From Deltaproteobacteria bacterium (GTDB lineage Bacteria > SAR324 > NAC60-12): a stretch of 64,000 nucleotides of DNA. The stretch is from positions 61,912 to 125,911 of the forward strand of contig JAYPUA010000002.1 in the NCBI GenBank assembly GCA_038133845.1, read 5' to 3'. The notes under the pieces were generated by a model. It searched no databases, was not told where the DNA came from, and saw only the letters and a list, made by a program, of their open reading frames with translations. Position numbers and translations under genes: made by a program. Below, piece by piece: positions 1,334 through 20,882 of the stretch. The number at the start of each line of letters is the position of its first letter. The stretch's first letter is position 1.

Positions 1334-3429
1334 GCGTTCTCCGGAAGAATGAGGAGGTTGCCGAAGCGGTCGACCTCGGCGGTCATGTCCGGTTCCAGAA
1401 AGATGGTGGTGTCCGGTTGTTCAAACAGGGCGGGTCCGGAGACACGTGCTCCCACAGGCAGGCGCAGGCGCTCATAGCGTTTGGCAGTGTGCCAGCCGCC
1501 TTCCACCCAGACCGGACGCTCTCCCACACAGCACGCCTCGGGCGCTACCTGATCCTTGGGGGCAAGCAGCGTCAGGTCCAGCTTCGGACGCTGGCCGATC
1601 ACCGCGCCCCGGAGGTTGAGGAGCCGGATGGGGAGGTTCTCCAGGATCCGCCCGTAGATTTCACGATATCGTGTTTCAAATGCCGTCCGGATGCGCTCCG
1701 GAGAGACCTCCAGCTCGGGAGGTGAACCGCCGGGAGCGAGCAGCTGCTGCACGATGGGGACCTCCACCGTGTGGGTTTGACCGAGGTAGGACATGTCCAG
1801 CTCAAAGCGTACCTCACGGCCCTCAAAGGTCACTCCGGAGGCTTCCAGCAACCGTGCTCCTTCTTGGGCAAAGGTCTCCATCGCAGAGCGCAGAGCCGCT
1901 ACCTCGAGCGAGTCAAGCAGAGAGTTGAAGGTCTGGACCCGGTCATGACGCATGTCGGCGATCACACAGCCGAGGGCGCTGGTCACTCCGGGATAGCGCG
2001 GAACCAGGGCCCGGGCCAGCCCAACCTCGCGGATCATCGCACAGACGTGCAGAGAGCCACCGCCTCCGAAGGGCATGGCCGCAAACTCCCGAGGGTTGTG
2101 CCCCTGTTCGACCGAAACCAGCCGGATCGCTCCGGCCATCTTCGAATTGGCAACCCGGATGATGGCTTCTGCGGCAGACATCACGTCCAGCCCCAGCGGC
2201 TCGGCGACATGCGTTTGAATGGCCGCCTTTGCCGAGTCCACATCCAGCCGGCTCAGCTTGCCTCCGATTGGACGATCCGCGTTGATGCGCCCCAGCACCA
2301 CGTTGGCGTCGGTCACGGTGGGGCGAGTGCTCCCCAGCCCGTAACACACTGGACCGGGGTCAGAGCCCGCAGACTCCGGACCGACCTCCAGCAGCCCGCC
2401 TCGATCCACGTAGGCGATCGAGCCCCCTCCAGCACCGATGGTGGTGATCTGGATCATCGGAGTCCGGACGACCATCCCGAAGCCGATGGAGGTCTGTGCG
2501 GCCAGCGCACTCTCACCGCCCTTGACCAGCGAGACGTCGAAACTGGTCCCCCCCATATCGCAGCTGATCACATTGGGGAAGCCCGCCTCGCTCCCGATGT
2601 AGGCGCTGGCGATTACTCCTGCCGCAGGCCCGGAGAGAGCGGTACGGACCGGAAAGCGCTCCGCCGTCTCCACACTCATCACACCTCCGTTGCTCTGGAC
2701 AATGAGCAGCTCTCCCGAAAAGTTCTCCTGGCGCATGCTGTGGTCCAGGTTCTCCAAGTAGCGGCTCACCTTTGGCTGCAGGTAGGCGTTCAGAGTGGTG
2801 GTGGACACGCGCTCAAACTCGCGGATCTCCGGGAGGATTTCGTGGCTGGCGCTGACGTGAGGGTTTGGCCATAGCTTTCGGACCCGCTCCACAGCCTTGC
2901 GCTCGTTCTCCGCATTTGCGTACGCGTTAATGAAGAACACGGAGACGGCCTCCACACCTGCCTCCAGCAGCACTTGAACCTGCGCCTCCACCTCGCCCAG
3001 GTCGACCTCGGTGTGCAGCGTGCCATCGGCCAGAACCCGCTCCGAGACCTCCAGCCTGAGATTTCGCGGCACAACCGGGTCGTACTGCCCCCAGAGTCCC
3101 CAGGTCTGCGGGCGATCCCGGCGGCGCATTTCCAGGACATCCCGGAAGCCCACCGTGGTCAGAATTCCGGTTTTGGCTCCGCCTCGACTGAGCAGGGCGT
3201 TGGTGCCCACCGTGGTTCCATGGACCACCGTCTTGATGCGGGTCAGCTCCGGAGCGTGCGCGTGAAGCCCCTCGAGGAAGCCCACCGACTGGTCTGTCGG
3301 AGTGGACGGGACCTTGGCCACCTGAATCTGCTGCTGGGCTTCATCCAAAAAGAACACGTCCGTGAAGGTTCCACCGACGTCAACACCAATGATCATGACT
3401 CCTTTCTGCAAGAGTGCGGTCTGTTTCAA
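1330..3429 (-). CDS. hydantoinase A / N-methylhydantoinase A / acetone-carboxylase-beta family ATPase (HyuA-like), with no partner B subunit adjacent
   Basis: 699 aa; GVDVGGTFTDVF N-terminus, DMGGTSFDVSLV and GAGGGSIAYV motifs typical of the hydantoinase A / oxoprolinase N-domain. Confidence 0.85.
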   Translation of the reverse strand: MKQTALLQKGVMIIGVDVGGTFTDVFFLDEAQQQIQVAKVPSTPTDQSVGFLEGLHAHAPELTRIKTVVHGTTVGTNALLSRGGAKTGILTTVGFRDVLEMRRRDRPQTWGLWGQYDPVVPRNLRLEVSERVLADGTLHTEVDLGEVEAQVQVLLEAGVEAVSVFFINAYANAENERKAVERVRKLWPNPHVSASHEILPEIREFERVSTTTLNAYLQPKVSRYLENLDHSMRQENFSGELLIVQSNGGVMSVETAERFPVRTALSGPAAGVIASAYIGSEAGFPNVISCDMGGTSFDVSLVKGGESALAAQTSIGFGMVVRTPMIQITTIGAGGGSIAYVDRGGLLEVGPESAGSDPGPVCYGLGSTRPTVTDANVVLGRINADRPIGGKLSRLDVDSAKAAIQTHVAEPLGLDVMSAAEAIIRVANSKMAGAIRLVSVEQGHNPREFAAMPFGGGGSLHVCAMIREVGLARALVPRYPGVTSALGCVIADMRHDRVQTFNSLLDSLEVAALRSAMETFAQEGARLLEASGVTFEGREVRFELDMSYLGQTHTVEVPIVQQLLAPGGSPPELEVSPERIRTAFETRYREIYGRILENLPIRLLNLRGAVIGQRPKLDLTLLAPKDQVAPEACCVGERPVWVEGGWHTAKRYERLRLPVGARVSGPALFEQPDTTIFLEPDMTAEVDRFGNLLILPENA

Positions 3430-6344: not shown

Positions 6345-7379
6345 ATGGAAATCCTCTTTCTTCCCAAACCCAACCTCTCCGCCTTTCTGGAAGCGCTCAA
6401 CGCTCATGGCCGACTGGTGGTCCCGGCAGCCGCTGGAGAAGGCCAGTACCGGTATGTGGAGTACTCCGAACTCTCTGGACCGGAAGAGGTCGCCCTGGAG
6501 TTTCTCCGGACCACGCTTCCGCTGAAGAAGTACTTCTTTCCGGCAGAAGAGGTCCTCTCCACATTTTCCGAAGAGGAGGGCTACCAGGAGGCTCCTTTGG
6601 AGGAGGAGCCTCCGATCCTCTTTGGGCCACATCCGTGCGAGCTTCACGGGCTGCGGGTGACGGACCGCTTCTTTCAGGACGGCTACGGAGACTACCACTA
6701 CGAGCGTCGCCGCCAAGGAGCCAAGGTGATTGGACTGGGCTGCATGCCGGACGAGAAGTGCTTCTGCCAGAGCACCGGGACCGATCACGTGGAGGACGTC
6801 TATGACCTGTTTCTGTGGGAGATCGAGGCCGGCTTTGTGACCATGGTCCGCACCCCGGTGGGACACGCGCTGGTTCACCTGGAGCGCGACCTCTTCGAGC
6901 ACGTCCAACGCTCGCAGATTGTGGAGCACCAGAAGAAGCTTGAAGTCCGGAGAAGCTCGTTCAACCGGGTCCTCCCAATCAGCGACCTGCCCCAACTGCT
7001 CCGCTTTGAGGAAGACAGCCCGGCTTGGAAGGAGTTGGGAGATGCCTGCTTTGCCTGCGGAGCCTGCAGCATGGTCTGCCCAACCTGCACCTGCTTCACC
7101 GTCTTTGACCGCACGGAGCTCTCTGGAGAGAGCGGGGAGCGCGTCAGGCGTTGGGACTCCTGCCTGTTCCGGGACTTCACCCGCATCGCCGGAGATGAAC
7201 TGATGCGTCCGGACCGTGCGGCACGGGTCAGCAACCGTTACTACCACAAGGAGCAGGGCTTCGTCGAGCAGTTCGGCATGCCCTCCTGCACCGGATGCGG
7301 ACGTTGCGTGGACGCCTGCACTGCCGGGATCGACATCACCCAAGTCTTTGCAAAGGTTCGTGGAAGCTGTGAACGCTGA
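6345..7379 (+). CDS. hydB: 4Fe-4S subunit of a cytoplasmic NAD(P)-linked [NiFe] hydrogenase (sulfhydrogenase beta / AsrA-like)
   Basis: 344 aa; CFACGACSMVCPTCTC and CTGCGRCVDACTAGID ferredoxin-type cluster motifs; first gene of a four-gene hydrogenase operon. Confidence 0.75.
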   Translation: MEILFLPKPNLSAFLEALNAHGRLVVPAAAGEGQYRYVEYSELSGPEEVALEFLRTTLPLKKYFFPAEEVLSTFSEEEGYQEAPLEEEPPILFGPHPCELHGLRVTDRFFQDGYGDYHYERRRQGAKVIGLGCMPDEKCFCQSTGTDHVEDVYDLFLWEIEAGFVTMVRTPVGHALVHLERDLFEHVQRSQIVEHQKKLEVRRSSFNRVLPISDLPQLLRFEEDSPAWKELGDACFACGACSMVCPTCTCFTVFDRTELSGESGERVRRWDSCLFRDFTRIAGDELMRPDRAARVSNRYYHKEQGFVEQFGMPSCTGCGRCVDACTAGIDITQVFAKVRGSCER

Positions 7380-7431
7380 ATTAACACTATCGCCAATCAA
7401 AACCGGGAGGTCGCCGCGGCTACGCGATCCG

Positions 7432-8334
7432 ATGCTCCCCCGGACCGCCTGGCTGGTGGGCAAGGAGGAGCTGTTGCCGGACCACATGCTCTTTCGCTTC
7501 CGGCTCAAGCCCGGAGAGGACGGCCCGGATGGCTCGAACCACCGCCCAGGTCAATTCGTGATGCTCTCCGTGATCGGAGTGGGAGAGGTTCCGATTTCCA
7601 TCTGTCACGCCCCAGTCTCTCAGGCCATCCCGCCTGAAGAGCGTGAGCTGCGCCTGACCATCCGGCGTGTCGGACGTGTCACCCGGGCGCTCTTCGACCT
7701 CACCCCTGGAGCACGAGTGGGGCTGCGAGGACCTTACGGACGCGGGTTCCCGCTGGAGGACCTCCACGGCAACAGCCTGGTGATGATGGCCGGCGGTCTG
7801 GGAATGGCTCCGCTGAGGTCTCTGCTCGAGTACGCTCACCAGCACCGGGAGCGCTTCGGCGAGGACGTCCACCTGCTCTACGGAACCCGGGCGGTCGGGC
7901 AGCTGCTCTACCCGGAGGCGCTCAAGCAGATCAACCAGTCCGGAGGGGTTCAGGTGCACCTGGCCTGTGACCGAGTGCCGGCCCGAGAGGAGTCCTTGAG
8001 CGGCCTGCCTCTGATTCAGGGCAACCTTCTGGACCTGCTGGCCGAGCTTCCTCTGGAGCAAACTCGAACCCGCTTTGCCATCTGCGGACCGCCGGTGATG
8101 TACGGTTACGTGACGGATCGTCTGCGAGACATGAAGGTCTTCCCGGAGCACGTCTACGTGAGCCTGGAGCGGCGCATGGAGTGTGCGATTGGCAAGTGTG
8201 GACACTGTGCCATCGGCTACCGCTACACGTGTACGGACGGGCCCGTGTTTTCTGTCTGGGAAGCCAGAGGGTTGCGTGAAGCCTGGCAGCCGCCTTCCGG
8301 GAAGGATGACCCGTATCTGGGAGGATGGCGATGA
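7432..8334 (+). CDS. hydG: FAD/NAD(P)-binding, 2Fe-2S oxidoreductase subunit (sulfhydrogenase gamma / PyrK-like)
   Basis: Start re-picked to the ATG at 7432 (MLPRTAW...); upstream ORF-track residues overlap hydB out of frame. RPGQFVMLSVIGVGEVPISICHAP and C-terminal CAIGKCGHCAIG cluster motif. Confidence 0.75.
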   Translation: MLPRTAWLVGKEELLPDHMLFRFRLKPGEDGPDGSNHRPGQFVMLSVIGVGEVPISICHAPVSQAIPPEERELRLTIRRVGRVTRALFDLTPGARVGLRGPYGRGFPLEDLHGNSLVMMAGGLGMAPLRSLLEYAHQHRERFGEDVHLLYGTRAVGQLLYPEALKQINQSGGVQVHLACDRVPAREESLSGLPLIQGNLLDLLAELPLEQTRTRFAICGPPVMYGYVTDRLRDMKVFPEHVYVSLERRMECAIGKCGHCAIGYRYTCTDGPVFSVWEARGLREAWQPPSGKDDPYLGGWR

Positions 8335-9161
8335 AGCGAATCAAACCCCGAGTCGGTATTTTTGGACTCACCGGATGTGCCGGAGACCAGCTGGTGATCC
8401 TCAACTGCGAGGATGAGCTGGTCGACCTGGCGAGCCGGATTGAGATTGTCAAATTCGGAATGGCCTCGTCGGCAGGAGATCTGGAGGGACGGCTGGACCT
8501 GGCGATTGTGGAGGGTTCGGTCTGTACACAGCGGGATCTGGACCTGCTGCTGAATGTGCGCTCCAAGTCCGCTGCGCTGCTGGCGATCGGGACCTGTGCA
8601 GTCTGGGGAGGTATTCCGGCGATGCGGAACGAGCTGCCGCTCGAGCTGCTGCAGAAGCTGGTGTACGAGGGCAAGGACCTGGACGAGATCAACCTGGAGC
8701 AGGCTCATCCGGTGAGCGACTTTGTTCCGGTGGACTTTGCGGTTCCAGGATGTCCGATTGAGAAAGAGGAGTTCCTGAACACCCTGATTGCGATCTTGCA
8801 ACGGACCACTCCGGAGCGTCACGACTACTCCGTGTGCTCGGAGTGCCGGATTGCGGAGAACCTCTGTCTGGTGAAGACTCGGGGGATCGTCTGCTGTGGA
8901 CCAATCAGCGCCGGAGGCTGCAAGGCGCGCTGTCCCAGCCTGGGAGTTCCGTGCTACGGCTGCCGTGGGCCGGTGGACGAGCCGCATTATGATGCCACTG
9001 CCCAGCTCTTCAGTGAGCATGGCCTCAGCAAGGCCGATGTGATTGAGCAGATTCAGCGGTACTCCGCTCCCGCCTGGGTCAACCACCACCTGCGCCGGGA
9101 GTGGGCCGAAGACCCGGAACGGCGCGGACGCCAGCGTATTCCCTCTTCCGAGTCAGCTTAA
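8325..9161 (+). CDS. hydD: [NiFe] hydrogenase small (delta) subunit, group 3 type
   Basis: IGTCAVWGG, YSVCSECR, GCKARCPSLGVPCYGCRG motifs match group-3 small subunits; GGAGG SD before ATGGCGATG (start 8325 or 8331); TAATG stop/start overlap with the large subunit. Confidence 0.8.
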   Translation: MAMKRIKPRVGIFGLTGCAGDQLVILNCEDELVDLASRIEIVKFGMASSAGDLEGRLDLAIVEGSVCTQRDLDLLLNVRSKSAALLAIGTCAVWGGIPAMRNELPLELLQKLVYEGKDLDEINLEQAHPVSDFVPVDFAVPGCPIEKEEFLNTLIAILQRTTPERHDYSVCSECRIAENLCLVKTRGIVCCGPISAGGCKARCPSLGVPCYGCRGPVDEPHYDATAQLFSEHGLSKADVIEQIQRYSAPAWVNHHLRREWAEDPERRGRQRIPSSESA

Positions 9162-10477
9162 TGGGACAGGTCATTGAAATTCCACACCTCTACCGCGTCG
9201 AAGGCCACGGAGGCATCCAAGTGACTTTGAGTGAAGACGACGAGGTCTCCTGCCAGATGGGAATCTTCGAGGGTTCTCGCTTCTACGAGGCCCTGCTCCG
9301 CGGGCATCCCTATCGGGAGATCCCCGGGATCGTCTGTCGAGTCTGCGCCATCTGCTCGGCCGCACATGCGCTGTGCTCGATTACGGCTCTGGAAGACGCC
9401 CTGCAGGTCGAGGTTCCGGAGTCGGTGAAGCGCCTGCGGGATCTGCTCAATCACGGAGAGATGATCGAGTCCCACGCCCTGCACTTCTTCATGCTTGCGG
9501 TTCCGGACTATTTGGGGTTGCCCAGCGTGCTGGACATGCAGCAGCAGCACGGAGAGGAGGTCAAGGGTGCCCTGCGGCTCAAGAAGTTTGGGAACCTGAT
9601 TCAGGAGCGCATCGGCGGACGGGCGATTCATCCGGTGAACATGCTCGTTGGAGGCGTGGGGACCTGGCCCGCGCGGAAGGTCTTTGACGAGATCCGTGCC
9701 GAAGCCGAAGCCTGTCTGCGCGTTCTGGAGACCCTGGAACCGCTGGCGGCCTCGCTGGAGCACCCCGACTTTGCCCAGTCGGAGCGCAACTTTGTGGCCC
9801 TGCTCCCCGAGCGCAACGCGCTGGGGCTTGGAATTGGCCGGACCATCCAAGCCAGCGGACAGCCAGCGTTGCCGGTCTCGGAGTTCCGGAACTACGTCAA
9901 TGAGAGCGTGGTGCAGCACTCCACGGCAAAGCAGTCGCTGTTTTCCAACGAACCCTTCATGGTCGGCTCGCTGGCTCGTCTGATCCACCATCGGCCCCAG
10001 CTTGGCGGAGAGGCCGCCCGGGTTGCCGACCGCCTCTTTGGTCCGGAGATTCCTCCGAACCCTCTGCTTAACAATGCGGCACAGTTGGTGGAATTGATTC
10101 ACTGCTGTGAGGAGGCCATTCGCCTGTGCAGCGAACTGTCTGAGCTGTCTCCTGCTCCAGAACCACAGACCCGAATCGAGCTTCCCAAGGAGGAGCGCAC
10201 CGGCACTGCCGCAATGGAAGTCCCCCGAGGAACGCTGTTCCACAGCTACACGCTCAACCCAAGCGGAGTGGTGGTCGATGCGGATATTGTCACTCCGACG
10301 GCTCAGAACCTGGCGCAGATCGAAGCGGATATTCGCCAGACGGTCCAATCGTGGCTCCAGCAAAACCGTAGAGGCGGCGAAGGCCAACTCAAATCCGACC
10401 TGGAGCGCCTGGCTCGTGCCTACGACCCCTGCATCTCCTGCTCGACCCATCTGATCGATCTGAGGATTGCACAATGA
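9161..10477 (+). CDS. hydA: [NiFe] hydrogenase large (alpha) subunit, cysteine-only type
   Basis: Start re-picked to ATG 9161 (MGQVIEIPHLYRVEGHGG...). N-terminal RxEGHGG/C-x-x-C (RVCAICS) and C-terminal DPCISCSTH Ni-Fe ligand motifs; C-terminal extension after the last His suggests protease-processed maturation. Confidence 0.85.
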   Translation: MGQVIEIPHLYRVEGHGGIQVTLSEDDEVSCQMGIFEGSRFYEALLRGHPYREIPGIVCRVCAICSAAHALCSITALEDALQVEVPESVKRLRDLLNHGEMIESHALHFFMLAVPDYLGLPSVLDMQQQHGEEVKGALRLKKFGNLIQERIGGRAIHPVNMLVGGVGTWPARKVFDEIRAEAEACLRVLETLEPLAASLEHPDFAQSERNFVALLPERNALGLGIGRTIQASGQPALPVSEFRNYVNESVVQHSTAKQSLFSNEPFMVGSLARLIHHRPQLGGEAARVADRLFGPEIPPNPLLNNAAQLVELIHCCEEAIRLCSELSELSPAPEPQTRIELPKEERTGTAAMEVPRGTLFHSYTLNPSGVVVDADIVTPTAQNLAQIEADIRQTVQSWLQQNRRGGEGQLKSDLERLARAYDPCISCSTHLIDLRIAQ

Positions 10478-10911
10478 AGCTGAGAGCGGTTCAGCCCGGA
10501 GACCACACCCAGTGGCTGGGATTGTATCGACAATACGCCGAATTCTACCGGGTCCCCATGTCCGAACAGACCTCAGACACTGTCTGGAGGTGGTTGCACG
10601 ACCCGGATCATGTTCTGGAGGGGTGGGTCGCCGAAGAGTCCGGGAAGCTTTGGGGACTGGCCCACTTCCGGACAATGCCCAACCCGTTGCGAGGTGTTGA
10701 GGTTGGCTTCCTGGATGACCTGTTCGTGAGTCCGGAAGCTCGTGGGAAGCGGGTCGGCGAGGCGCTGATCATGCAGCTGAAGGCGCTGGCCCAAGAGCGC
10801 GGCTGGCCGAAGATTCGCTGGATCACTGCGGATGACAACTACCGCGCCCGGACCCTCTACGACCGGGTGGCGCAAAAAACCCAGTGGAACGTCTACGAAG
10901 TCCAGCTCTGA
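10474..10911 (+). CDS. GNAT-family N-acetyltransferase
   Basis: 145 aa; GNAT motif A (EARGKRVGEALI) ; ATGA overlap with hydA stop. Confidence 0.75.
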   Translation: MKLRAVQPGDHTQWLGLYRQYAEFYRVPMSEQTSDTVWRWLHDPDHVLEGWVAEESGKLWGLAHFRTMPNPLRGVEVGFLDDLFVSPEARGKRVGEALIMQLKALAQERGWPKIRWITADDNYRARTLYDRVAQKTQWNVYEVQL

Positions 10912-10922: not shown

Positions 10923-11321
10923 TCAGGAGTCCTCGGTCTTCCGGCACAACCCCCCGTGTATCGTCTCAAATCCGACCTTCTCCAAGGTGATCACGGAAAA
11001 CTTCAGGTTTTTCGGGTTGAATGAGAAATACCGCTCAATCATCGTCTGTGCACCGTTCCTGCGAAGACACTGGTGGATCTCGGCCTCCCAGTCATAGAAC
11101 GAGGTGTCGCAGAAGTCGGCCTCATCATTTGGCCGGAAGACGGCCAACCGCTCCTGCTCGATCCGGAGGACGTACCGACTGTCGGACAAGAGCCGGTACG
11201 TGGTTGCGGTTCCGTCTTCCCGGGAGTTGAAACCGAGGAAAAACTCCGCCTGACAGTAATACTCTGTCGCCCACAGGGGCAATGCTCCCAACAAAGCCAC
11301 TCCAAGCAAGGTTGCCTTCAT
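10923..11321 (-). CDS. hypothetical secreted protein, 4 Cys
   Basis: 132 aa; N-terminal signal peptide MKATLLGVALLGALPLWA; last gene of the importer/amidohydrolase/COG0523 operon. Confidence 0.5.
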   Translation of the reverse strand: MKATLLGVALLGALPLWATEYYCQAEFFLGFNSREDGTATTYRLLSDSRYVLRIEQERLAVFRPNDEADFCDTSFYDWEAEIHQCLRRNGAQTMIERYFSFNPKNLKFSVITLEKVGFETIHGGLCRKTEDS

Positions 11322-11369
11322 TCAGAACTCTCTGGCATGGTTGAACAAAACGCATCCGGAAGTTCCACT

Positions 11370-12308
11370 CTAGCCGGGCTGGTCTCCGAAAGCCAACCAC
11401 TTGTCAAACCAGGCATCCAGCCGCTCCGCAAAGCGCACATCGCTGGGGCCAATGGCCACCAGCCGGGAACTTTCCCGGGCGCCAGGCCTCTCCCGAATTT
11501 CATACCGGGCCCCGACTGCCTGAACCTCCAGAACGCCTGAGCTGCCGGCAATCCAGCCCTTCAGCCGGTGCACTCCCTCGGGCAGGTGCTCCAGCGCCGC
11601 CCTCAGTTCTGCGACCGTGCAGGAGGGCTCCTCCATTCGGTGCCAGCGGGAGAACAGCTCTTCGTGCAGGATCCGAAATTTTGGAGCATGTTTTGTTTGA
11701 GGATCCTCTTTTTCAAAATGTGCCCCGATGACCCACTCAACCGGAACCTGCGCCTGCTCGGCCTGCGCCTGTGAAGCCCGAGGATTCTGTTCGGAAATCC
11801 AGCACTCCAGAGCCTCTTTCTCGGAGTTGGAAACAAGGTCGATCTTGTTCAGCAGCAGGAGGTCGGCGCTTTGAATCTGCCTCCGGAGGATGCTTCCCAC
11901 TTGGGGGTCCTTCACGCGTTCGCGCACCGTCTCCGCGTCAACCACGCAGACCACGGCATCCAAGGACAACTCCGGTTCAGCCCGGGCGATGTCAGCCAGT
12001 TTGTCCGGTTCAGCCACACCGCTGGCCTCGATCAGGATCCCTTCCGGAAGCTCCGGGTGGGTGAGCAAGCGATCCAGCGCATCGTAGAGCCCCCCGCCCA
12101 GCGAGCAGCAGATGCAGCCATTTTCCAGTTGAATGGTCTGTGAGTTTCGGGAGGCGATCAACTCGGCGTCGATGTTCAGCGCGCCAAAGTCGTTCACCAG
12201 CACCGCCAGACGCACTCCGGAGACCTGCTGGATCAGGTGGTTCACCAGCGTGGTTTTCCCGGCGCCGAGATACCCGGCAACAATTGTCAGCGGGACGCTG
12301 GGGGTCAT
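11370..12308 (-). CDS. COG0523 / CobW-family G3E GTPase (metallochaperone)
   Basis: Start re-picked to MTPSVPLTIVAGYLGAGKTT (P-loop); GCICCS (CxCC metal-binding motif) and LLLNKIDL; 4-nt overlap with upstream amidohydrolase. Confidence 0.8.
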   Translation of the reverse strand: MTPSVPLTIVAGYLGAGKTTLVNHLIQQVSGVRLAVLVNDFGALNIDAELIASRNSQTIQLENGCICCSLGGGLYDALDRLLTHPELPEGILIEASGVAEPDKLADIARAEPELSLDAVVCVVDAETVRERVKDPQVGSILRRQIQSADLLLLNKIDLVSNSEKEALECWISEQNPRASQAQAEQAQVPVEWVIGAHFEKEDPQTKHAPKFRILHEELFSRWHRMEEPSCTVAELRAALEHLPEGVHRLKGWIAGSSGVLEVQAVGARYEIRERPGARESSRLVAIGPSDVRFAERLDAWFDKWLAFGDQPG

Positions 12309-13942
12309 TCCGGCGCCGCGGGGAAGACTCTCCCTCCGGAGACGACTCCCCAAACCGGGACATCCTTGAGGGTTTCGGAGGGCACGGTGAACGGGTCCTC
12401 TTCCAGCACGGCGAAGTCCGCACGCTTTCCGGATTCGATGGAACCGATCTCGTGGTCCAAGTGGAGCGTGTAGGCGGCCCCGATCGTGATGGCCTTGAGC
12501 GCCTCCGGAACGCTGATACGCTCATTGGGTCCCAAGACCTTCCCGCTCCCGGTCAGGCGATGCACAGCGCACCAGGCGGTGAAGAGCGGGCCCATCGGCG
12601 TCACGGGTGCATCGGAGTGGATGGCCAGCGGTACGCCTTCATCCAGCGCTGTCCGGCAGGCGTCCATGCGCGCCGCGCGCTCCGGACCGATGGTGATGTC
12701 GCGGTGCTGGTCTCCAAAGTAGTAGATGTGGTTGGCAAACAGGTTGGCGCACAGGCCCAGCGCAGCCATGCTCCGGAACTGGGCCTGATCCGCCATCTGG
12801 CAGTGCTGCAAGGTATGCCGGTGATCGGGGAATGGCGTCTTGCGGAGCGCCTCTCGCAGCGCGGCAATGGTCACCTTGGACGCCTCGCTTCCGTTCACGT
12901 GCAGGTGCATCTGAATGCCCTCTCGGTTGAGGTGTTCGGTCAAGGCGTAGAGACTCTCCGGAGGCAGGTTCCAGATGCCGTGGTTCGGACCTTTGTAGTA
13001 GTGAGGCCACTGAACCCGGGCAGTGAAGCCCTGGATGGAGCCGTCCGTCATGACCTTGACGAGCCCCAATCGCAGCATCTCGGTGCTCTTCAAGCGGAGG
13101 GCCTGAGCCTTTTGGGCGATCTCCTCCGGTGTGCCTCCCAGCGCGTTCAGAGCCGGAACCACCCGGAGCGAATAGTCGGCCGAACCCGTCAGATCCAGCA
13201 ACCGCTCAACCTCCTCCTCTTCAAGCGAGCTGAACAGGTCGGTGGCGGTGGTCACACCGCAGCGTCGCGCAACGGAGGCATAGTCCCGGATCCCCTCTGC
13301 AGCGCTTCCCAGCTCCCGGAAGTTGATCCCCAGGCGTCGCATGACCGGAAACATCGCCGCCATTTCCTGCAGTTCTCCGCTGGGATGGCCGTCAGCCTGC
13401 TTGTGAACGCCCTGAACGTCGGTGTCTCGCGAGTAGCCGACCAGTTTCAGCGCCGCCGAGTTGACCGTCATCAGGTGAAAGTTGGAGTGCATCACGGCGA
13501 TCGGACGAGTCTCCGAGACGGAGTCGAGGTCGGTCCGGTCCAGGCGCTTGCTGGGCAGAAAGATCGGGTCGAACCCCCAGGCGACCAAAGGTGCCTCCGG
13601 AGGCAGCCGAGAGCCGATCTCCCGCAACCGTTCCAGGACCCCGGAAATGTCTGTGAGTGCAGGCCACGGCTGCCCTTGCGGGTCCATGCGGTCGTGATAT
13701 CCAACGTAGGTGTAGCTCCAGATTCCTCCGGCCATCAGGTGCGCGTGTCCCTCAACAAACCCGGGAAGGAGGACCTTGTCGGCAAAGCGCATGTCCACCG
13801 GAGCGTCACCCCAGCTACGAACCTCCTCTTCCGAGCCCACGGCCAGAATGCGCCCTTCCCGGACCGCAACATGCGTCGCTGCTGGAGTTGCGGAGTTCAT
13901 CGTGTGAATTTGCTTCGCCTGATAAATCGTGTGCTGTGTCAT
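12305..13942 (-). CDS. metal-dependent amidohydrolase, amidohydrolase-3 (YtcJ-like) family
   Basis: 545 aa; VEGHAHL near N-terminus, HSDAPV and C-terminal GKRADFAVL motifs; ATGA overlap with upstream ABC ATPase. Confidence 0.8.
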   Translation of the reverse strand: MTQHTIYQAKQIHTMNSATPAATHVAVREGRILAVGSEEEVRSWGDAPVDMRFADKVLLPGFVEGHAHLMAGGIWSYTYVGYHDRMDPQGQPWPALTDISGVLERLREIGSRLPPEAPLVAWGFDPIFLPSKRLDRTDLDSVSETRPIAVMHSNFHLMTVNSAALKLVGYSRDTDVQGVHKQADGHPSGELQEMAAMFPVMRRLGINFRELGSAAEGIRDYASVARRCGVTTATDLFSSLEEEEVERLLDLTGSADYSLRVVPALNALGGTPEEIAQKAQALRLKSTEMLRLGLVKVMTDGSIQGFTARVQWPHYYKGPNHGIWNLPPESLYALTEHLNREGIQMHLHVNGSEASKVTIAALREALRKTPFPDHRHTLQHCQMADQAQFRSMAALGLCANLFANHIYYFGDQHRDITIGPERAARMDACRTALDEGVPLAIHSDAPVTPMGPLFTAWCAVHRLTGSGKVLGPNERISVPEALKAITIGAAYTLHLDHEIGSIESGKRADFAVLEEDPFTVPSETLKDVPVWGVVSGGRVFPAAPE

Positions 13943-15756
13943 GAGGAGGCCTCTTCGAGCGCGTAATAATGACCTGGCGTTGCCTGCTGCATCTGAACCA
14001 ATTGGGGCTCAAACCCTGCGGGGCGGACCGGGCTTGGAATTTCTTCGGTAGAGAGCGAACGTCTTACGGGGCTGGAGCTTGGTTCGGCCACCGGAACTGC
14101 AGAGAGGAGCTTGCGCGTATAGGAGTGTCTTGGATTGGAGAAAACCTCTGCCCGGGGACCAATCTCCACAATCTGCCCAAGGTACATCACGGCCACCCGG
14201 TGGCTGATGCGCTCCACCACCGCCATATCGTGCGAGATGAACAGAAACGCCAGTCCCAGCTCCGCCTGCAGGTCGAGCATCAGGTTGAGCACTTGAGCCT
14301 GAATGGAGACGTCCAGCGCAGAGACAGCCTCGTCAGCAACAAGGAGGCTGGGGTTGAGCGCCAGCGCCCGGGCAATGCAGATGCGTTGCCGCTGCCCTCC
14401 GGAGAACTGATGGGGAAAGCGATGGCGCTGCTCCGGAGTCAGATGAACCCTGCGGAACAGCTCGGCGACGCGCTCCTCGCGTGCGGAGCGGCTTAGCCGA
14501 GGCTCGTTGACCTCTAGCGGCTCTGCCACGGAATCGGCAGCAGTACGGCGTGGATCCAGCGAGGAGTAGGGGTCCTGAAAGATCATCTGCATCTTCTTGC
14601 GGTGTACCCGCAAGGCCTCTCCGGAGAGATGAGTGATGTCTGCCTCCTGCAGCCGAATACTCCCCGAATCCGGCTCCAGCAGCCGCATCACCAGGTTGGC
14701 CGTAGTCGATTTTCCACAGCCGCTCTCGCCAACCAGCGCCAGTGTCTCTCCGGCCTGAAGAGAGAAGGAGACCGACTCCACGGCGTGGACGTTCCCCGTG
14801 GTCTGCCGAAACACCCCCTTGCGGATCGGGAAGCGCTTCACCAGTTGGTCCACCTGCAGCACCGTGGAATCCGGTCCGGATTCCAACGTCTCGGCTGGGA
14901 GGGAGGGAGGGAACTCCTCAAGCAGTTCGAACTTTTTGGGGCGCGGCTCGCCCTGCATGCTTCCCAGGCGCGGGACAGCCTTGAGCAGCGCTCGGGTGTA
15001 GTCGTGCCCGGGCTGCCGGAAGATCGAGTGCACGGTCCCGGATTCGATCAGGCGCGAGCGGCACATCACGGCGACGTCATCTGCGGTCTCGGCGACCACG
15101 CCCATGTCGTGAGTGATCAGCAGGATCGCGGTGCCGAACTCCTCCTGAAGCTGCTTCATCAGCGCCAGAATCTGTGCCTGGATCGTGACATCCAGCGCCG
15201 TGGTGGGCTCATCAGCAATCAACAGATCCGGATTGCTGGCAAAGGCCATGGCGATCATGACTCGCTGCCGCATCCCTCCAGAGAGCTGATGCGGGTAGTC
15301 TCGAAGTCGACTGCGGGCTTCCGGAATCCGGACCCGCTCCAGCATCTCCAGCGCCTGAGCCTCGGCGGCCTCCGAGGAGACTTGCTGGTGCAGTCGAATG
15401 CTTTCAGTCAACTGGTTGCCGATCGTGTAGACCGGGTTCAAGGAGGAGAGCGGCTCTTGGAAGATCATCGAGATCCGGTCTCCACGGATCTGACGCATCC
15501 GGGACTCCGGAAGCCGCAGGAGGTCCTGGCGCTGACCTTCGTGGTGGAAGGTGATGCTCCCGGAGACGATGCGCCCCTGAGAGCTGAGTTCAACCAGGCG
15601 CATGATCGAAAGCGCGGTGACGGACTTCCCGGAACCAGACTCCCCCACCAACGCCAACGTTTTGCCTGGATCGATCCGGAACCCAACATCGTCCACCGCG
15701 CGATGCTTCCCAAAGAGGACGGAGAGCCCGCTGACTTCAAGCAGTGCCTCCATCAA
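13939..15756 (-). CDS. ABC transporter ATP-binding protein, fused double ATPase (DppD/DppF- or NikD/NikE-like)
   Basis: 605 aa; two Walker A ([16 protein letters not shown]), two LSGG signatures. Confidence 0.85.
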
Positions 15757-16619
15757 CGCTCCCGGAGCTTGGGATTGAGCGCGTCATTCAAGCCATCGCC
15801 GATCAGACTGATGCTGAGGACGGTGAGAAAGATCGCGATCCCAGGGAAGGTCACGACCCACCAGGCATCCAGAAAGTACTGACGTCCAGAACCGATCATC
15901 AGCCCCCAGCTCATCACGTTCGGATCTCCAAGTCCAAGGAAGCTCAGCCCGGCTTCAAAGAGGATCGCCACACCCGTGATCAGCGCGGCGTAAACGATCA
16001 GGGGCGGGGAGGCGTTGGGCAGGATCACGCGCCAGATGATCCGGGCATCGGAGGAGGAGATTGTCCGGGCAGCCTTGACGAAGTCCAGCTCCCGGATACG
16101 GAGGAACTCGGCTCGCGCCAGCCGGGCCTCTGCCGTCCAGCTGACCACTCCGATGGCGATCGTGATCGTGGTCAGGGTTGGAGAAAAAAGCATCACCAGC
16201 ACCATGGCCAAGAGCAGAGCTGGGAGCACCTGAAAGAACTCGGTGATGCGCATCAGAACCTCATCTACCCAGCCGCCGTAGTATCCGGCAAGGGCCCCGA
16301 TCGTTACCCCGATGAAGACGCTGATCAGTGCTGCAGTCACGCCCACCAGCAGCGTCGCCTTGCCCCCATGAATCAGTCCGGCCAGGATGTCTCGCCCTAA
16401 CTGGTCGGTTCCCAGAACCCAGCCCTCCTCTCCCGGGGGAGAGAGCGGGGCCCAGACCATCTCGAAGGGGTCGATCGGATAGAGCGACGGCCCAAGCAAC
16501 GTGGCCCCCATGATCAGCAGCAGCAGCAGCAGCCCGGCGACAGCGGTGTGGTTTCTGCGAAACATCCGCCATGCCTCACGGGAGGGGCTGTAGGATTCGA
16601 GCGGGGACGGAGAGTTCAT
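15753..16619 (-). CDS. ABC transporter permease (DppC/NikC-like)
   Basis: Start re-picked to MNSPSPLESY... at 16619; the 145 upstream residues in the track are Pro/Arg/Gly-rich and overlap the adjacent permease. Typical BPD-transporter EAA region. Confidence 0.8.
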   Translation of the reverse strand: MNSPSPLESYSPSREAWRMFRRNHTAVAGLLLLLLIMGATLLGPSLYPIDPFEMVWAPLSPPGEEGWVLGTDQLGRDILAGLIHGGKATLLVGVTAALISVFIGVTIGALAGYYGGWVDEVLMRITEFFQVLPALLLAMVLVMLFSPTLTTITIAIGVVSWTAEARLARAEFLRIRELDFVKAARTISSSDARIIWRVILPNASPPLIVYAALITGVAILFEAGLSFLGLGDPNVMSWGLMIGSGRQYFLDAWWVVTFPGIAIFLTVLSISLIGDGLNDALNPKLRER

Positions 16620-17587
16620 CGTTTCCGAATTCTGGGGTCGGCCACGCCGTAGGCCACGTCGGTGAGCAGGTTGGCCACAGTGACCATGAATGCCGAGAAG
16701 AAGAGGATTCCGAGCATGGTCGGGTAGTCGCGCCGGAGGATGGAGTCGAACGCCAAACTGCCCAGACCCGGCCAGTTGAAGACGGTTTCCACCAGGACTG
16801 CGCCGGCAAAGAGGTTCCCAAACTGCAGTCCGGCGGCGGTGATCACCGGGAGGATGGCGTTCCGGAGGCCGTGCTTGTAGACCACTCGATCTGCAGAGAG
16901 CCCCTTGGCGTGTGCTGTCCGGATGTAGTCGGCTCCAAGCACCTCCAGCATGCTCGCCCGGGCGAGGCGGCTGTATTGAGCGATGTAGATGATCGCCAGG
17001 GTGAACGCCGGGAGCACCAGGTGATGCAGAACGTCCCAGACCTGAATCCACCAAGAAGGATTCTTGAGCAGGATGTCATTCATTCCGGAGACCGGAAACC
17101 AGGGGAGCATCGAGGCGAACAGGATCAGCAGCACCAGCCCGGTCCAGAACACCGGAGCCGAGTAGCCAACCAGGGAAATGATGGTGGTGAAGTGGCTCAG
17201 GAGTCCATTGGGACGACGCGCTGCGACCACGCCCAGAAGCGTCCCGGTCACAATGCTCAGCAACGCTGCAGTGATCACCAGCACCAAGGTGGCGGGCAGT
17301 CGCTGACCGATCAGCCCAATCACCGAGGTGTTGAAGTAGTAGGAATATCCGAGATCCCCCTGAAGCACCTGTCCCAGGTAGCGCCCAAGTTGAATGTGAA
17401 AGGGCTGGTCCAGTCCGTACTGCTGCCGGATTGCCGCCAGGATCTCCTCCGTGGCTCCTCCCATCTCCCCGGCAATGACCTCCGCCGGATCTCCGGGCGC
17501 GAGGTGGATGAGGGTGAAGTTCAGCACCAAGACTGTGGCAAGAAGAAGCACAGCGTTCAGCACGCGTTTCAGCACCAACTGGAGCAT
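16616..17587 (-). CDS. ABC transporter permease (DppB/NikB-like)
   Basis: 323 aa, multiple TM segments, N-terminal MLQLVLKRVLNAVLLL typical of DppB. Confidence 0.85.
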   Translation of the reverse strand: MLQLVLKRVLNAVLLLATVLVLNFTLIHLAPGDPAEVIAGEMGGATEEILAAIRQQYGLDQPFHIQLGRYLGQVLQGDLGYSYYFNTSVIGLIGQRLPATLVLVITAALLSIVTGTLLGVVAARRPNGLLSHFTTIISLVGYSAPVFWTGLVLLILFASMLPWFPVSGMNDILLKNPSWWIQVWDVLHHLVLPAFTLAIIYIAQYSRLARASMLEVLGADYIRTAHAKGLSADRVVYKHGLRNAILPVITAAGLQFGNLFAGAVLVETVFNWPGLGSLAFDSILRRDYPTMLGILFFSAFMVTVANLLTDVAYGVADPRIRKR

Positions 17588-17648
17588 GAGGCGGTTCGTT
17601 CAGGGAGGGCCAGGACTTGACACAGGCGCAGCCCCGGAAGGCTGAGGT

Positions 17649-17672
17649 CCTCTCTCCGCAAAGGGAGAGAGG
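17649..17672 (-). promoter_or_regulatory. intercistronic stem-loop between the SBP gene and first permease gene
   Basis: cctctctccgcaaagggagagagg: perfect 9-bp stem with 6-nt loop, located between SBP stop (17681) and permease start (17587). Confidence 0.45.
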
Positions 17673-17680
17673 AGGTTGGG

Positions 17681-19264
17681 TCAGGGCTGCGACTCCCAGT
17701 AGACCTCATCCATCGGAGCCATGGTGCCCCAGATGGTGGTCGGGAGGTTGCGCAGGTTTTTGTGGTAGACCGTGTGGTACGGCAGGATGTTGATCCAGGC
17801 AACCGGAAGCTCGTCGGCAACGATCTGCTGGAACTCCTTGTAGAGCGCCTTGCGCTTGTTCATGTCGCTTTCCACAGCCGCCTGGCTGAGCAACTCATCC
17901 ACACGAGGATTGCTGTAGCTCTGGGTGTTCGACCAGATCACTCCCTTGCGGATGTTGCTGGAAATGTAGGTCCGGTGCACCCCAATGACCGGGTCCCCCC
18001 AGTTGAAGACAATGTCCATGCTCAGGTCAAAGTCGTGCCCGCCCACGCGCTTGGCCCAGGTCGGGAAGTCCGGAGAGGCGCGCAACTCGGCATTGATCCC
18101 AATCTTACGGAGTTGAGTCTTGACGTACTCGGCGACGTTCTTCTGCTGCTCGTCACTTCCCGGAATGTAATCGATCTGCAGCGAGAAGCGCATGCCATCG
18201 CCTTTCTTCTGCAGGCCTGCCTGATCCAGCAGGCTCTCAGCCTTCTTCAGGTCGACGTCGTATTTCTCCACATCTGCGGTGGCGTACGGGCTGTCCGGAT
18301 GAATCGGCCCGTAGATGCGGGTGGAAAATCCGCGATGGAGCGCCTTGGTGATGAAGTTGCGATCGACAGCATAGGAGATCGCCTGCCGGACGCGCTTGTC
18401 ATCGAACGGTTTCTTGGCGTGGTTGAACGCCAGCCAGTTCAAAGCCCCCACAGCCGCGTACCCATCAACCGTGGCCTCCAGGTGCGACTGCTTCTTCATC
18501 CGCTCAATGTCACGGACCGAGGCAGAAAACGGCCAGAGGTGCGCTTCCTGACGCTCCATGGAGAGCACGAGGCTGCTGGTGTCGCGGTTGATCCGGATGA
18601 TGATCTCGTCCAGGTAAGGCTTCCCCTGCATGAAGTAGTTCTCGTTGCGAGCGAGCCGAATGTACTCTCCGGGCTTCATCTCCACAAACTTGAACGGTCC
18701 AGAGCCTACCGGGTCCGCATTGCGCGGGTGCCCCTTGGGATCCTGGCCATCTCCATAGATGTGCTTGGGAATGACCGGAAGCAGCGCGGAGGACATGGCC
18801 AGCAGAATGGCCGGATGCGGCCTCTCCAGACGAATCACCGCGGTGTGGGTATCCGGTGTATCCACAGCGCTCACTGGAGCAAACATGGTCTGGAACGGGT
18901 GGTTCTGCTTGACCGTCATCAGAGAAAACGCCAAGTCTTCCGAGGTCACAGGCTTGCCGTCGTGAAAAGTCGCCTGCTTGTTCAGGTGGAGCGTCACACT
19001 CATGCCGTCGGCTGCAACCTCCCAGCGCTCGGCGAGGTAGGGCTGCGGGTTCCAGTTCTCATCATAGCGCAGAGGAGAGGCGAAGATCTGTGTCCCCGGA
19101 ACGGCTGTGGCAATGCCCGACTGCACAGCCGGGTTCAGATGTCGGGGGACCTGAGTCGACGCGATGATCAGAGTTCCTCCGGACTTCGGAGCCGCGCTCA
19201 AGCTTGCGGCAATCAGGGTCGAGGCAAGAACGCCTCCCAAAGCTTTTGAAAAGATTTTCAACAT
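17681..19264 (-). CDS. ABC transporter substrate-binding protein, family 5 (peptide/nickel)
   Basis: Start re-picked to MLKIFSKALGGVLASTLIAASLSAAP (signal peptide) at 19264, preceded by GGAGG; family-5 SBP length and motifs. Confidence 0.85.
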   Translation of the reverse strand: MLKIFSKALGGVLASTLIAASLSAAPKSGGTLIIASTQVPRHLNPAVQSGIATAVPGTQIFASPLRYDENWNPQPYLAERWEVAADGMSVTLHLNKQATFHDGKPVTSEDLAFSLMTVKQNHPFQTMFAPVSAVDTPDTHTAVIRLERPHPAILLAMSSALLPVIPKHIYGDGQDPKGHPRNADPVGSGPFKFVEMKPGEYIRLARNENYFMQGKPYLDEIIIRINRDTSSLVLSMERQEAHLWPFSASVRDIERMKKQSHLEATVDGYAAVGALNWLAFNHAKKPFDDKRVRQAISYAVDRNFITKALHRGFSTRIYGPIHPDSPYATADVEKYDVDLKKAESLLDQAGLQKKGDGMRFSLQIDYIPGSDEQQKNVAEYVKTQLRKIGINAELRASPDFPTWAKRVGGHDFDLSMDIVFNWGDPVIGVHRTYISSNIRKGVIWSNTQSYSNPRVDELLSQAAVESDMNKRKALYKEFQQIVADELPVAWINILPYHTVYHKNLRNLPTTIWGTMAPMDEVYWESQP

Positions 19265-19363
19265 GCCTAACCTCCAAATTCGGTGAAGAGTGGTCAAAAA
19301 ACGACCTCTTTGTAGTCCAAAGAATTACGGAAGTCGAGACAGAAAGTCTCAAATTTTCAATTT

Positions 19364-19397
19364 TTTGTCCGAAAACAGGAGGAGATTTGTCCGAAAA
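19364..19397. promoter_or_regulatory. direct repeat TTTGTCCGAAAA x2 (22-bp spacing) upstream of the importer operon
   Basis: tttgtccgaaaa at 19364-19375 and 19386-19397, about 100 bp upstream of the SBP start codon. Confidence 0.35.
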
Positions 19398-19417
19398 ACG
19401 ACTTTCTGGAAGGCAAG

Positions 19418-19449
19418 CTGACTCCCAGGCGGTTGCTGCAGGGAGTCAG
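19418..19449 (-). terminator. stem-loop immediately downstream of the helicase stop
   Basis: ctgactccc aggcggttgctgca gggagtcag: 9-bp perfect stem; begins 15 nt after helicase stop (19464); no U-run. Confidence 0.4.
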
Positions 19450-19463
19450 TGGTTCTCAGCAGC

Positions 19464-20882
19464 TTAGGCTGCTTTGGGCGCGCGAGGAGGGCGGTTGCCA
19501 GTGTCCTTGGGAGGAGCGGATTTCTTGCGGTGACGCTGAGCCGAGAGGGAATCCTTCTGCCAGAGCGTGCGCTGCTTTCTGCGTCGTGGACGTGGTTCCG
19601 GAGAGAGTTCTCCGAAAGTCTCAGAAACCGGTGCCTCTGCTCCGTGCACGGCCTTCAGGTGCGCAGGGCGCGGCCTTTTTCCTGCTCCTCGGCCTTCTTG
19701 GGATGCCGGCTTGGGCGCAGCCAGTTTCCCTTCGGAAGCCGCGCTGCGGACCTGGCTCTTGTCCCATTCCTGAATTGGGAGCTTCTGGCGCAGGGTGCGC
19801 TCGATCGCCTTGAGCTTGCTGCGCTCCTCAGGAGAGCAGAGAGACACCGCGATGCCTTCGGCTCCACCACGAGCGGTCCTTCCAATACGGTGGACGTAGC
19901 TTTCCGGCTCATCCGGAAGCTCAAAGTTGAACACATGAGACACCTGGTCGATGTCGATTCCTCGGGAAGCAACGTCTGTGGCGACAAGCACCTGGAGGCG
20001 TCCGCGACTGAAGTTCTTCAGCGCTTTCTGACGAGCACTCTGGGTACGGTTTCCATGGATCGCGTCTGCGGTAATTCCCTTCTTCTGAAGCATCAGGGCC
20101 AGGCGCTGAGCCCCCACCTTGGTCCGGGTAAAGACCAGGCTTCGGGTGACGGCGTTGTCAGAGAGCAGGTTGTGCAGCAGGTCGCGCTTGTGCTCCCGGG
20201 GAACAAAGTAGAGCCGCTGGTCGATGCGCTCCACCGGAGTGGATTCCGGAGTCACCTCCACCCGCACAGGATCGCGGAGCAGATCGCCCGTAAGCTGAAC
20301 GATCGGAGCCGGCATCGTGGCCGAGAACAACATCGTCTGCCGCTCTTTGGGAAGCTGCCGGATCAAGTTGCGGATGGTGGGCAAAAACCCCATGTCGAGC
20401 ATTCGGTCAGCTTCGTCAAGTACCAGAAAGCGTACCGACGCCAGCGTGAGGTGTTGCTGCTCCAGGTGGTCCATCAACCTTCCGGGGGTGGCCACCAGAA
20501 TGTCGACCCCTTGCTGAAGCGCCCGGGTTTGACCAAAAATCCGGACTCCTCCAAAAATCGCCAAGGTCTTCAGGTGCGTGTGGCGTCCGTAGCTGCTCAA
20601 GGAGGATTGAACCTGAACAGCCAGTTCTCGAGTCGGAACCAAGATCAGGGCCTGAGGCATCCCCGGGCGACGCTTGACAGGGTTTGACAGCAGATTCTGC
20701 AACAGCGGCAGGGAAAATGCCGCGGTCTTTCCGGTTCCAGTTTGGGCAATACCCAGCAGGTCCTGGTGGTTCAGCAGAGTCGGGATGGCCTGCTGCTGAA
20801 TCGGGGTGGGGGTCTGGTAATGATTTTCCTCCAGCGCCTTCTGCAGAGCAGGCAACAGCTGGAGGTCAGTGAATGAAAGCAT
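19464..20882 (-). CDS. DEAD-box ATP-dependent RNA helicase (RhlE-like) with basic C-terminal tail
   Basis: Start re-picked to MLSFTDLQL; Q-motif TPTPIQQQAIP, motif I AQTGTGKT, DEAD (VLDEADRM), SAT, HRIGRTAR; Arg/Lys-rich C-terminus. Confidence 0.85.
   Translation of the reverse strand: MLSFTDLQLLPALQKALEENHYQTPTPIQQQAIPTLLNHQDLLGIAQTGTGKTAAFSLPLLQNLLSNPVKRRPGMPQALILVPTRELAVQVQSSLSSYGRHTHLKTLAIFGGVRIFGQTRALQQGVDILVATPGRLMDHLEQQHLTLASVRFLVLDEADRMLDMGFLPTIRNLIRQLPKERQTMLFSATMPAPIVQLTGDLLRDPVRVEVTPESTPVERIDQRLYFVPREHKRDLLHNLLSDNAVTRSLVFTRTKVGAQRLALMLQKKGITADAIHGNRTQSARQKALKNFSRGRLQVLVATDVASRGIDIDQVSHVFNFELPDEPESYVHRIGRTARGGAEGIAVSLCSPEERSKLKAIERTLRQKLPIQEWDKSQVRSAASEGKLAAPKPASQEGRGAGKRPRPAHLKAVHGAEAPVSETFGELSPEPRPRRRKQRTLWQKDSLSAQRHRKKSAPPKDTGNRPPRAPKAA

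Follow-up and report, generated by a model that had tools for sequence, protein, structure and literature searches.

In a 64-kb stretch of contig JAYPUA010000002.1 from a SAR324 bacterium (the window, to whose positions all coordinates refer), six minus-strand genes at 11370–19264 probably constitute a catabolic operon of the naa type, in which the substrate is most likely N-acetyltaurine and a COG0523 GTPase would deliver metal to the amidohydrolase encoded next to it. The genes encode a family-5 solute-binding protein (SBP), two permeases and a fused double ATPase of an ATP-binding cassette (ABC) importer, a YtcJ-like amidohydrolase, and the GTPase. The operon is most likely the Ruegeria pomeroyi-type (ABC) version of the naa cluster, co-directional as in Achromobacter. 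A preliminary description of the region had offered two readings: (a) nickel uptake for a nearby [NiFe] hydrogenase, and (b) amide import coupled to an amidohydrolase with a dedicated COG0523 partner. Reading (b) is right in outline, the pair being conserved in 71 of 78 related loci, whereas reading (a) fails at several points (see section Hydrogenase Neighborhood and the 132-Residue Orphan).

Conservation of the Amidohydrolase–GTPase Pair

Related loci (designated by L numbers) were collected by an enzyme-alignment scan of one genome per GTDB species; the set consists of the best 80 of at least 567 relatives (53–64% identity), and neighboring genes were counted by tblastn of the window proteins against these 80 loci. 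Adjacency of the pair was counted among the 78 loci with at least 1 kb of downstream sequence, a COG0523 gene being scored if co-directional and within 200 nucleotides (nt). Such a gene lies directly 3′ of the amidohydrolase gene in 71 of the 78 loci, and in three further loci the GTPase gene is 0.3–1.7 kb from the amidohydrolase gene. The co-occurrence of YtcJ-like amidohydrolases with COG0523 neighbors that the preliminary description had raised is thereby borne out. In every context inspected by hand (three contigs of metagenome-assembled genomes, Paracoccus sp. MA and TOH, Burkholderia multivorans, Caballeronia sp. NK8, and two metagenome contigs), an Amidohydro_3 gene encoding about 542 amino acids (aa) is located immediately 5′ of the COG0523 gene. 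In the window, the amidohydrolase stop and the COG0523 start overlap in an ATGA sequence, as do permease 1 and permease 2. Translational coupling together with near-universal adjacency points to a dedicated GTPase partner of the kind that Nha3 is for nitrile hydratase and UreG for urease.

The pairing is broader than NaaS and is not universal. Paralogous Amidohydro_3 genes (32–37% identity) are directly followed by a COG0523 gene in different clusters, which carry other transporters (LIV-type ABC, TRAP); by annotation, these pairs include those of Mesorhizobium pWSM4875 (L101 6001–8741, LIV-type ABC) and Sulfitobacter mediterraneus P1 (L102 6001–8510). In Persicobacter and Pukyongiella, amidohydrolase and COG0523 matches are adjacent by coordinates. 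The paralogue of Phaeobacter inhibens pPGA1_262 (L100) has no COG0523 partner. COG0523 "subgroup 4," with the members SMb20133, BCAM2270, Reut_A3078, and Pfl_3432, has been described as co-localized with "metal-dependent hydrolases," AtzB, and UraA (Haas et al., 2009).

Transporter Orthology

Each transporter component scores below the cutoff of every named equivalog, and only some generic ATPase-domain models pass. The SBP falls below all NCBIfam equivalog cutoffs (NikA, 167 versus 393 bits; Opp4A, 170 versus 650; DppA, 133 versus 1005), and the best NCBIfam match of the ATPase is GsiA (775 versus a cutoff of 1077 bits). An SBP of the window type (threshold, at least 50% identity to that of the window; range, 52–66%) adjoins the amidohydrolase–COG0523 pair in 46 of the 80 species loci, and the permeases of those loci are 59–73% identical to those of the window (permease 1, 59–65%; permease 2, 62–73%). 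A second family-5 SBP of the same window is only 37% identical to that of the operon, which makes the operon's transporter a true orthologue of those that travel with the pair. The ATPases are encoded by separate genes in 38 of 40 related loci and are fused in two.

Another family-5 ABC importer, likewise with a fused double ATPase, is encoded in the window (58035–63381, plus strand); before it lie a divergent LysR gene and genes for a PLP (pyridoxal 5′-phosphate)-dependent enzyme of the PALP type and an Asp/Glu/hydantoin racemase. This region (55253–63381) probably represents a cluster for the catabolism of D-amino acids or peptides.

In Roseobacter-group loci (L035, 5328–9916; similarly L023, L030, L036, L037, L042, L044, and L065), a TRAP transporter (DctPQM) takes the place of the ABC system beside the pair. 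L035 has a second Amidohydro_3 gene (535 aa; Pfam) after DctM, and other TRAP-type loci have open reading frames (ORFs) of similar size.

Link to Taurine Catabolism and the naa Cluster

Xsc is sulfoacetaldehyde acetyltransferase, which catalyzes the desulfonation step of taurine catabolism. Its gene, scored at a threshold of at least 40% identity to the Caballeronia gene, is present in 11 of the 80 species loci, and the products in L057 and L030 pass the TIGR03457 equivalog (932 and 904 bits versus a cutoff of 676). Several Achromobacter loci (L057 and similar) have the order xsc–pta–SBP–permease–permease–ATPases–amidohydrolase–COG0523, with all genes co-directional. The Paracoccus loci L082 and L084 have pta and xsc after the GTPase gene, and in Caballeronia the two genes are located 6 kb downstream of the symporter-type cluster. 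The SBP and permeases of the window are 55–73% identical to those of the xsc/pta-linked Achromobacter and Paracoccus clusters. The xsc gene is linked with three transporter classes, and in a neighbor-joining tree of the enzyme both xsc and the family-5 transporter are scattered across all major branches, which argues for one function across the family.

In R. pomeroyi DSS-3, SPO0657 is annotated as naaT ("metallochaperone, putative"), SPO0658 as naaS ("N-acetyltaurine amidohydrolase"), SPO0659 as naaR (LysR), and SPO0660–0664 as naaA, B, B′, C, and C′ (PMC4334477). The naa annotation is said to be founded on work that characterized function in Cupriavidus necator (PMC13335735, 2026; PMC4809877). 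The Burkholderia and Caballeronia loci of our set encode a LysR protein, a DUF3311 protein, a Na+:solute symporter, the amidohydrolase, and the GTPase. We take this architecture to be that of naaROPST in C. necator H16, a cluster reportedly described by Denger, Lehmann, and Cook in 2011 (Microbiology 157:2983) as consisting of a LysR regulator, a small membrane protein, a Na+:solute symporter, an amidohydrolase of about 61 kDa that was purified, and a COG0523 "putative metallochaperone." Zn and Fe are said to have been found bound in NaaS.

Several points weigh against assigning the window operon to N-acetyltaurine and its GTPase to metal delivery. The genes tpa, tauXY, xsc, pta, and naaR were not found within the 64-kb window. 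C. necator H16 and R. pomeroyi DSS-3 are absent from the best 80 loci (a search of a plasmid collection with the Burkholderia homologue likewise gave no Cupriavidus necator record), and the tie to the characterized NaaS and to SPO0658 is one that we infer from synteny and the xsc/pta linkage. The pair adjoins at least five transporter classes (family-5 ABC, SSS with DUF3311, OpuAC ABC, TRAP, and TctABC), a variety that could mean differing substrates within the family. The GTPase is only about 34–46% identical to its counterparts, and the chaperone role of NaaT proteins is a putative one.

The lack of taurine-pathway genes in the window and the range of transporters would also suit the same architecture and mechanism acting on another small N-acyl or amide substrate, such as a different N-acyl-aminosulfonate, N-acetyl-β-alanine, or a modified dipeptide. 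The nearest tree neighbors of the enzyme, which include loci with MlrC and an unrelated family-5 transporter (L001, L013) and one with TctABC (L092), fit this alternative as well, as do the paralogues of 32–37% identity with a COG0523 partner in clearly different clusters. However, the SBP and permeases are orthologous (55–73%) to those of xsc/pta-linked and R. pomeroyi-type clusters, and the xsc linkage extends over the whole tree rather than one clade; we regard a different substrate as unlikely, and N-acetyltaurine as the preferred assignment.

In L001/L009 (6837–8357) and L013, a gene for MlrC (microcystinase C-like, DUF1485) lies directly 5′ of the amidohydrolase gene. The family-5 transporter of L001/L009 is not orthologous to that of the window (SBP, 27% identity), which suggests that the substrate may differ in this MlrC-type sub-clade, to which some of the enzymes most similar to that of the window belong.

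Amidohydrolase and COG0523 GTPase

The amidohydrolase is 59–67% identical to its best 120 database homologues. A two-metal ligand set (H66, H68, K296, H346/H348, H380, H442/D444) is invariant in alignments A1 and A2, which took in 13 and 30 homologues, and H66/H68, K296, H348, H380, and D444 align to the HxH, K, H, H, and D positions of 3igh/3icj. These two uncharacterized Pyrococcus hydrolases are the nearest solved structures, at 20% identity, which indicates that no structure is available for any member of the NaaS-like family. The top fold matches of the AlphaFold2 model (predicted local distance difference test [pLDDT] score, 89.8) are amidohydrolases. Ligand alignment and model together place the enzyme in the two-metal subtype of the amidohydrolase superfamily, with a predicted (β/α)8 barrel and a putative carbamylated lysine at K296. 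In this subtype, the lysine equivalent to K296 is carbamylated.

The 312-aa GTPase carries the motifs of COG0523 proteins, namely a P-loop (G12–T20), N(G/S)CxCC (N63-G-C65-I-C67-C68), NKxD (K155-I-D157), and a C-terminal domain with RxKG (R248-L-K250-G251), together with E94-A-S-G97. The P-loop, N63-GCICC-68, K155-I-D157, and R248-L-K-G251 are invariant in alignment A4. RxKG is an arginine finger that drives GTP hydrolysis in ZigA and MigC (PMC13001444). The best database homologues of the GTPase are 46% identical, and it falls below the NCBIfam cutoffs for CobW (135 versus 332 bits), ZigA (116 versus 600), and YjiA-type proteins (101 versus 361). An identity as CobW of cobalamin biosynthesis was rejected on this score and on the lack of cob genes nearby in the window. 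Membership in the Zur-regulated COG0523 subfamily 1 (YciC/ZigA/ZagA) was rejected on the ZigA score and on the lack of an above-background Zur box.

It is also very improbable that the protein is a generic zinc-sparing factor, i.e., a Zur-regulated zinc chaperone of the ZigA/YciC type that serves many clients under zinc starvation and belongs to the operon by chance. ZigA is the second-best NCBIfam match of the GTPase, and the CxCC and RxKG motifs are present, although these are common to all COG0523 proteins. The ZigA score, however, is far below its cutoff, no upstream Zur box rises above background, and the coupling to the amidohydrolase gene and the adjacency across species fit a dedicated partner of the Nha3–nitrile hydratase kind.

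Proposed Function and Role of the GTPase

In the proposed pathway, the periplasmic SBP would capture a small N-acylated amine, most likely N-acetyltaurine, which would be imported through the two permeases, powered by the fused double ATPase. The cytoplasmic amidohydrolase, whose two metals a carbamylated lysine would bridge, would then split the amide bond to yield acetate and taurine. The translationally coupled NaaT-like GTPase would bind a divalent metal at CxCC and hand it to the apo-amidohydrolase with GTP hydrolysis, which would parallel the delivery of metal to urease by UreG. The analysis establishes the content, order, and coupling of the genes, the conservation of the pair, the orthology of the transporter, the recurrent xsc linkage, and the intactness of metal ligands and GTPase motifs; which substrate and metal are used, and that the GTPase acts as a chaperone, is inferred. 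With this assignment, genes labeled "hypothetical," "ABC," "amidohydrolase," or "GTP-binding" become a probable operon for uptake and cleavage of an organosulfonate (N-acetyltaurine).

A wider proposal, which we put forward only tentatively, is that NaaT-like GTPases may be obligate, dedicated metal insertases for the whole YtcJ-like two-metal branch, comprising NaaS and the paralogues of 32–37% identity. If so, naaS/naaT would be the genetically fixed client–chaperone pair long sought for COG0523 in bacteria, analogous to UreG–urease but of a zinc or iron era, and the window would add a deep-branching, non-proteobacterial example for co-evolutionary and structural work. In a 2024 review of metallostasis, only CobW and Nha3 are named as having known bacterial clients; this COG0523 review did not surface in a literature search for naaT or N-acetyltaurine together with metallochaperone. 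Because the two genes are translationally coupled, adjacent in 71 of 78 species, and similarly paired in paralogues, naaS/naaT is apparently an overlooked, ready-made test system for the COG0523 client question. The coupling had been called under-described in the preliminary description; naaS and naaT themselves are already published (PMC4334477, PMC13335735), but the chaperone role stands in that literature as putative only.

Operon Layout and Upstream Region

Seven minus-strand ORFs are present between 10923 and 19297, at the positions given by the preliminary description, and their sizes (527, 323, 288, 604, 545, 312, and 132 aa) are matched by independent gene calling of public contigs identical in sequence (Table 1). 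The SBP start is an ATG at 19264 with GGAGG 7 nt 5′ of it, whereas the mechanical ORF reaches a TTG at 19297; the start of permease 2 was corrected to the ATG at 16619, in agreement with the 288 aa of the independent call. Although seven co-directional genes joined by 4-nt overlaps had been proposed, overlaps of 4 nt (or 1 nt) occur at four junctions only: permease 1/permease 2, permease 2/ATPase, ATPase/amidohydrolase, and amidohydrolase/COG0523. Gaps of 93 nt and 48 nt separate the SBP gene from the permease 1 gene and the COG0523 gene from the 132-aa ORF, respectively. The six genes at 11370–19264 form a tight operon, and the 132-aa ORF lies outside this unit. Since the 48-nt gap after the GTPase gene contains no terminator, the 132-aa ORF may nevertheless be read through from the operon.

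Table 1. Features of the naa-type operon and its immediate surroundings (window coordinates).
Feature	Coordinates	Strand	Description
Upstream intergenic region, presumed promoter/operator	19265..19463	-	Read from sequence
Periplasmic family-5 solute-binding protein, NaaA-like	17681..19264	-	527 aa; signal peptide; Pfam SBP_bac_5, 3e-83
ABC permease 1, NaaB-like	16616..17587	-	323 aa; BPD_transp_1_N + BPD_transp_1 (Pfam)
ABC permease 2, NaaB′-like	15753..16619	-	288 aa; OppC_N + BPD_transp_1 (Pfam)
Fused double ABC ATPase, NaaC–NaaC′ in one chain	13939..15756	-	604/605 aa; two ABC_tran + oligo_HPY (Pfam)
Amidohydrolase, Amidohydro_3 (YtcJ-like), NaaS-like, predicted two-metal	12305..13942	-	545 aa; Pfam Amidohydro_3, 1.3e-74
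COG0523 G3E GTPase, NaaT-like	11370..12308	-	312 aa; cobW + CobW_C, 3.2e-46 (Pfam)
Secreted four-Cys orphan protein	10923..11321	-	132 aa; signal peptide; no Pfam/NCBIfam family

The upstream neighbor of the operon is a DEAD-box helicase gene, which is followed by a hairpin within 19265–19463. Two copies of a direct repeat, GTTTT(T)CGGACAAA, are spaced about 22 nt from each other at about 19340–19400 (minus strand, 5′ of the SBP start), and an inverted repeat, GAGAC-TTTCT-GTCTC (GAGAC-N5-GTCTC), is located between the direct repeat and the SBP start. Both are candidate operator sites for some regulator. No LysR gene of the naaR type is adjacent; the sole LysR gene in the window (55253–56248) lies beside another transporter. 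Achromobacter-type clusters likewise have no naaR between their genes.

The preliminary description had proposed looking for a NikR or Zur box upstream of the operon. In a scan of 19265–19470 with NikR, Zur, and Fur consensus sequences, matches were no better than background: the best NikR-box match (5/12 mismatches) equals background, and the best Zur match is within it, the Zur consensus used being one that may not be that of the host phylum. A scan for sigma-70 consensus promoters found none, and a scan for intrinsic terminators gave a single terminator-like site, which is intragenic, fewer than in shuffled sequences.

Hydrogenase Neighborhood and the 132-Residue Orphan

The hydrogenase is encoded on the plus strand at 6345–10477 by four subunit genes (Fer4_22, NAD-binding/DHODB Fe-S, small, and large). 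A gene for a GNAT acetyltransferase (10474–10911, plus strand) overlaps the stop of the large-subunit gene by 4 nt and ends 11 nt from the stop of the 132-aa ORF. The hydrogenase unit is thus convergent to the operon, and the two cannot be co-transcribed. In relatives with hydrogenase subunits of 83–94% identity and the same hydrogenase–PPDK–hydantoinase synteny, the operon is missing from this position. The proximity that had been remarked on is real, the two units being a few kb apart, but the convergent arrangement and these relatives argue against its having functional meaning. The GNAT gene is not present in the otherwise syntenic relatives L095 and L096, and this lineage differs from its syntenic relatives by both the GNAT gene and the naa operon.

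It is accordingly extremely unlikely that the operon encodes a Nik-like importer of nickel or a nickel chelate with a chaperone supplying the neighboring [NiFe] hydrogenase. Such a function would suit the closeness of the hydrogenase, the presence of NikA among family-5 SBPs, the membership of the nickel chaperones HypB and UreG in the G3E family, and the occurrence of some solved nickel-binding proteins among the structural-sequence matches of the SBP. Yet among those solved structures peptide and opine binders rank far above E. coli NikA, the NikA model is well short of its cutoff (167 versus 393 bits), and there is no NikR box in the upstream region. Neither the large nor the small hydrogenase subunit was found in any of the 80 species loci, and in other genomes SSS, TRAP, Tct, and OpuAC transporters, none of which are nickel importers, serve this enzyme pair. 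A tempting but false link between the operon and the hydrogenase is thereby removed.

The 132-aa secreted protein had been counted as a member of the operon, a view that its distribution contradicts: it has no match in loci L001–L087 and no Pfam or NCBIfam hit, and only two homologous clusters were found among 1.84 and 5.8 billion proteins. Its homologues (L095, 10001–10372; L096, 2690–3061; L097, 9269–9640; L098, 406–804) share four invariant Cys residues and, in 4/4 related contigs, are encoded convergently to the large-subunit gene of this four-subunit [NiFe] hydrogenase. The three longer of these contigs have a divergent GH77 gene upstream of the orphan, and neither the naa operon nor the GNAT gene. 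Lineages that share 83–94% identity in the flanking genes share 63% in the orphan, which evolves much faster than its neighbors. Its AlphaFold2 model is eight-stranded and all-β (pLDDT 78), and a fold search against the PDB gave no significant match (best E, 0.03; template modeling score, <0.45). The 144-aa gene after the Paracoccus COG0523 gene was considered as a counterpart and is unrelated. The 132-aa protein is a lineage-specific orphan resident beside the hydrogenase, not in the conserved module, and both it and the hydrogenase are mere neighbors of the operon.

The window also contains two genes of the hydantoinase/oxoprolinase family (1330–3429 and 27830–31585, both on the minus strand). 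One consists of the A domain only and lies beside PPDK and isochorismatase genes; the other is a 1251-aa fusion of A and B domains.

Comparison with Known Systems

Known naa clusters share with the window operon an Amidohydro_3 gene of about 545 aa, a COG0523 gene directly after it, and a dedicated importer alongside, which is either of the NaaABB′CC′ ABC type, as in the window, or of the NaaOP symporter type. The R. pomeroyi importer is likewise made up of a single binding protein, a pair of permeases, and a pair of ATPase domains. The window differs in that its six genes are co-directional, as in Achromobacter, naaR is not adjacent, and the ATPases are fused; in addition, the host is apparently not a proteobacterium, and its GTPase and enzyme are at most 46% and 67% identical, respectively, to any database protein.

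UreG is a G3E GTPase that loads the two-nickel centre of urease, an amidohydrolase-superfamily enzyme. The window resembles this system in encoding a G3E GTPase beside an amidohydrolase-fold enzyme with a predicted two-metal site bridged by a carbamylated lysine (HxH, K, H, H, D), but its GTPase is of the COG0523 type (CxCC, C-terminal RxKG) and is not accompanied by UreD/E/F-like accessory genes.

Nha3/P47K, the activator of Fe-type nitrile hydratase (subfamily 2; Haas et al., 2009), is comparable as a COG0523 gene fixed beside a single client in a catabolic cluster and not regulated by Zur. The client fold and metal site are different, and the window GTPase, by inspection of alignment A4, is without the cluster-1 features of ZigA, Nha3, and ZagA (PMC13001444). 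NikABCDE, DppABCDF, and GsiABCD correspond to the window importer in architecture and families, whereas the orthologues of its SBP travel with the amidohydrolase pair and not with nickel or peptide genes. By description, the operon can also be likened to COG0523 subgroup 4, the genes of which cluster with those of metal-dependent hydrolases (Haas et al., 2009).

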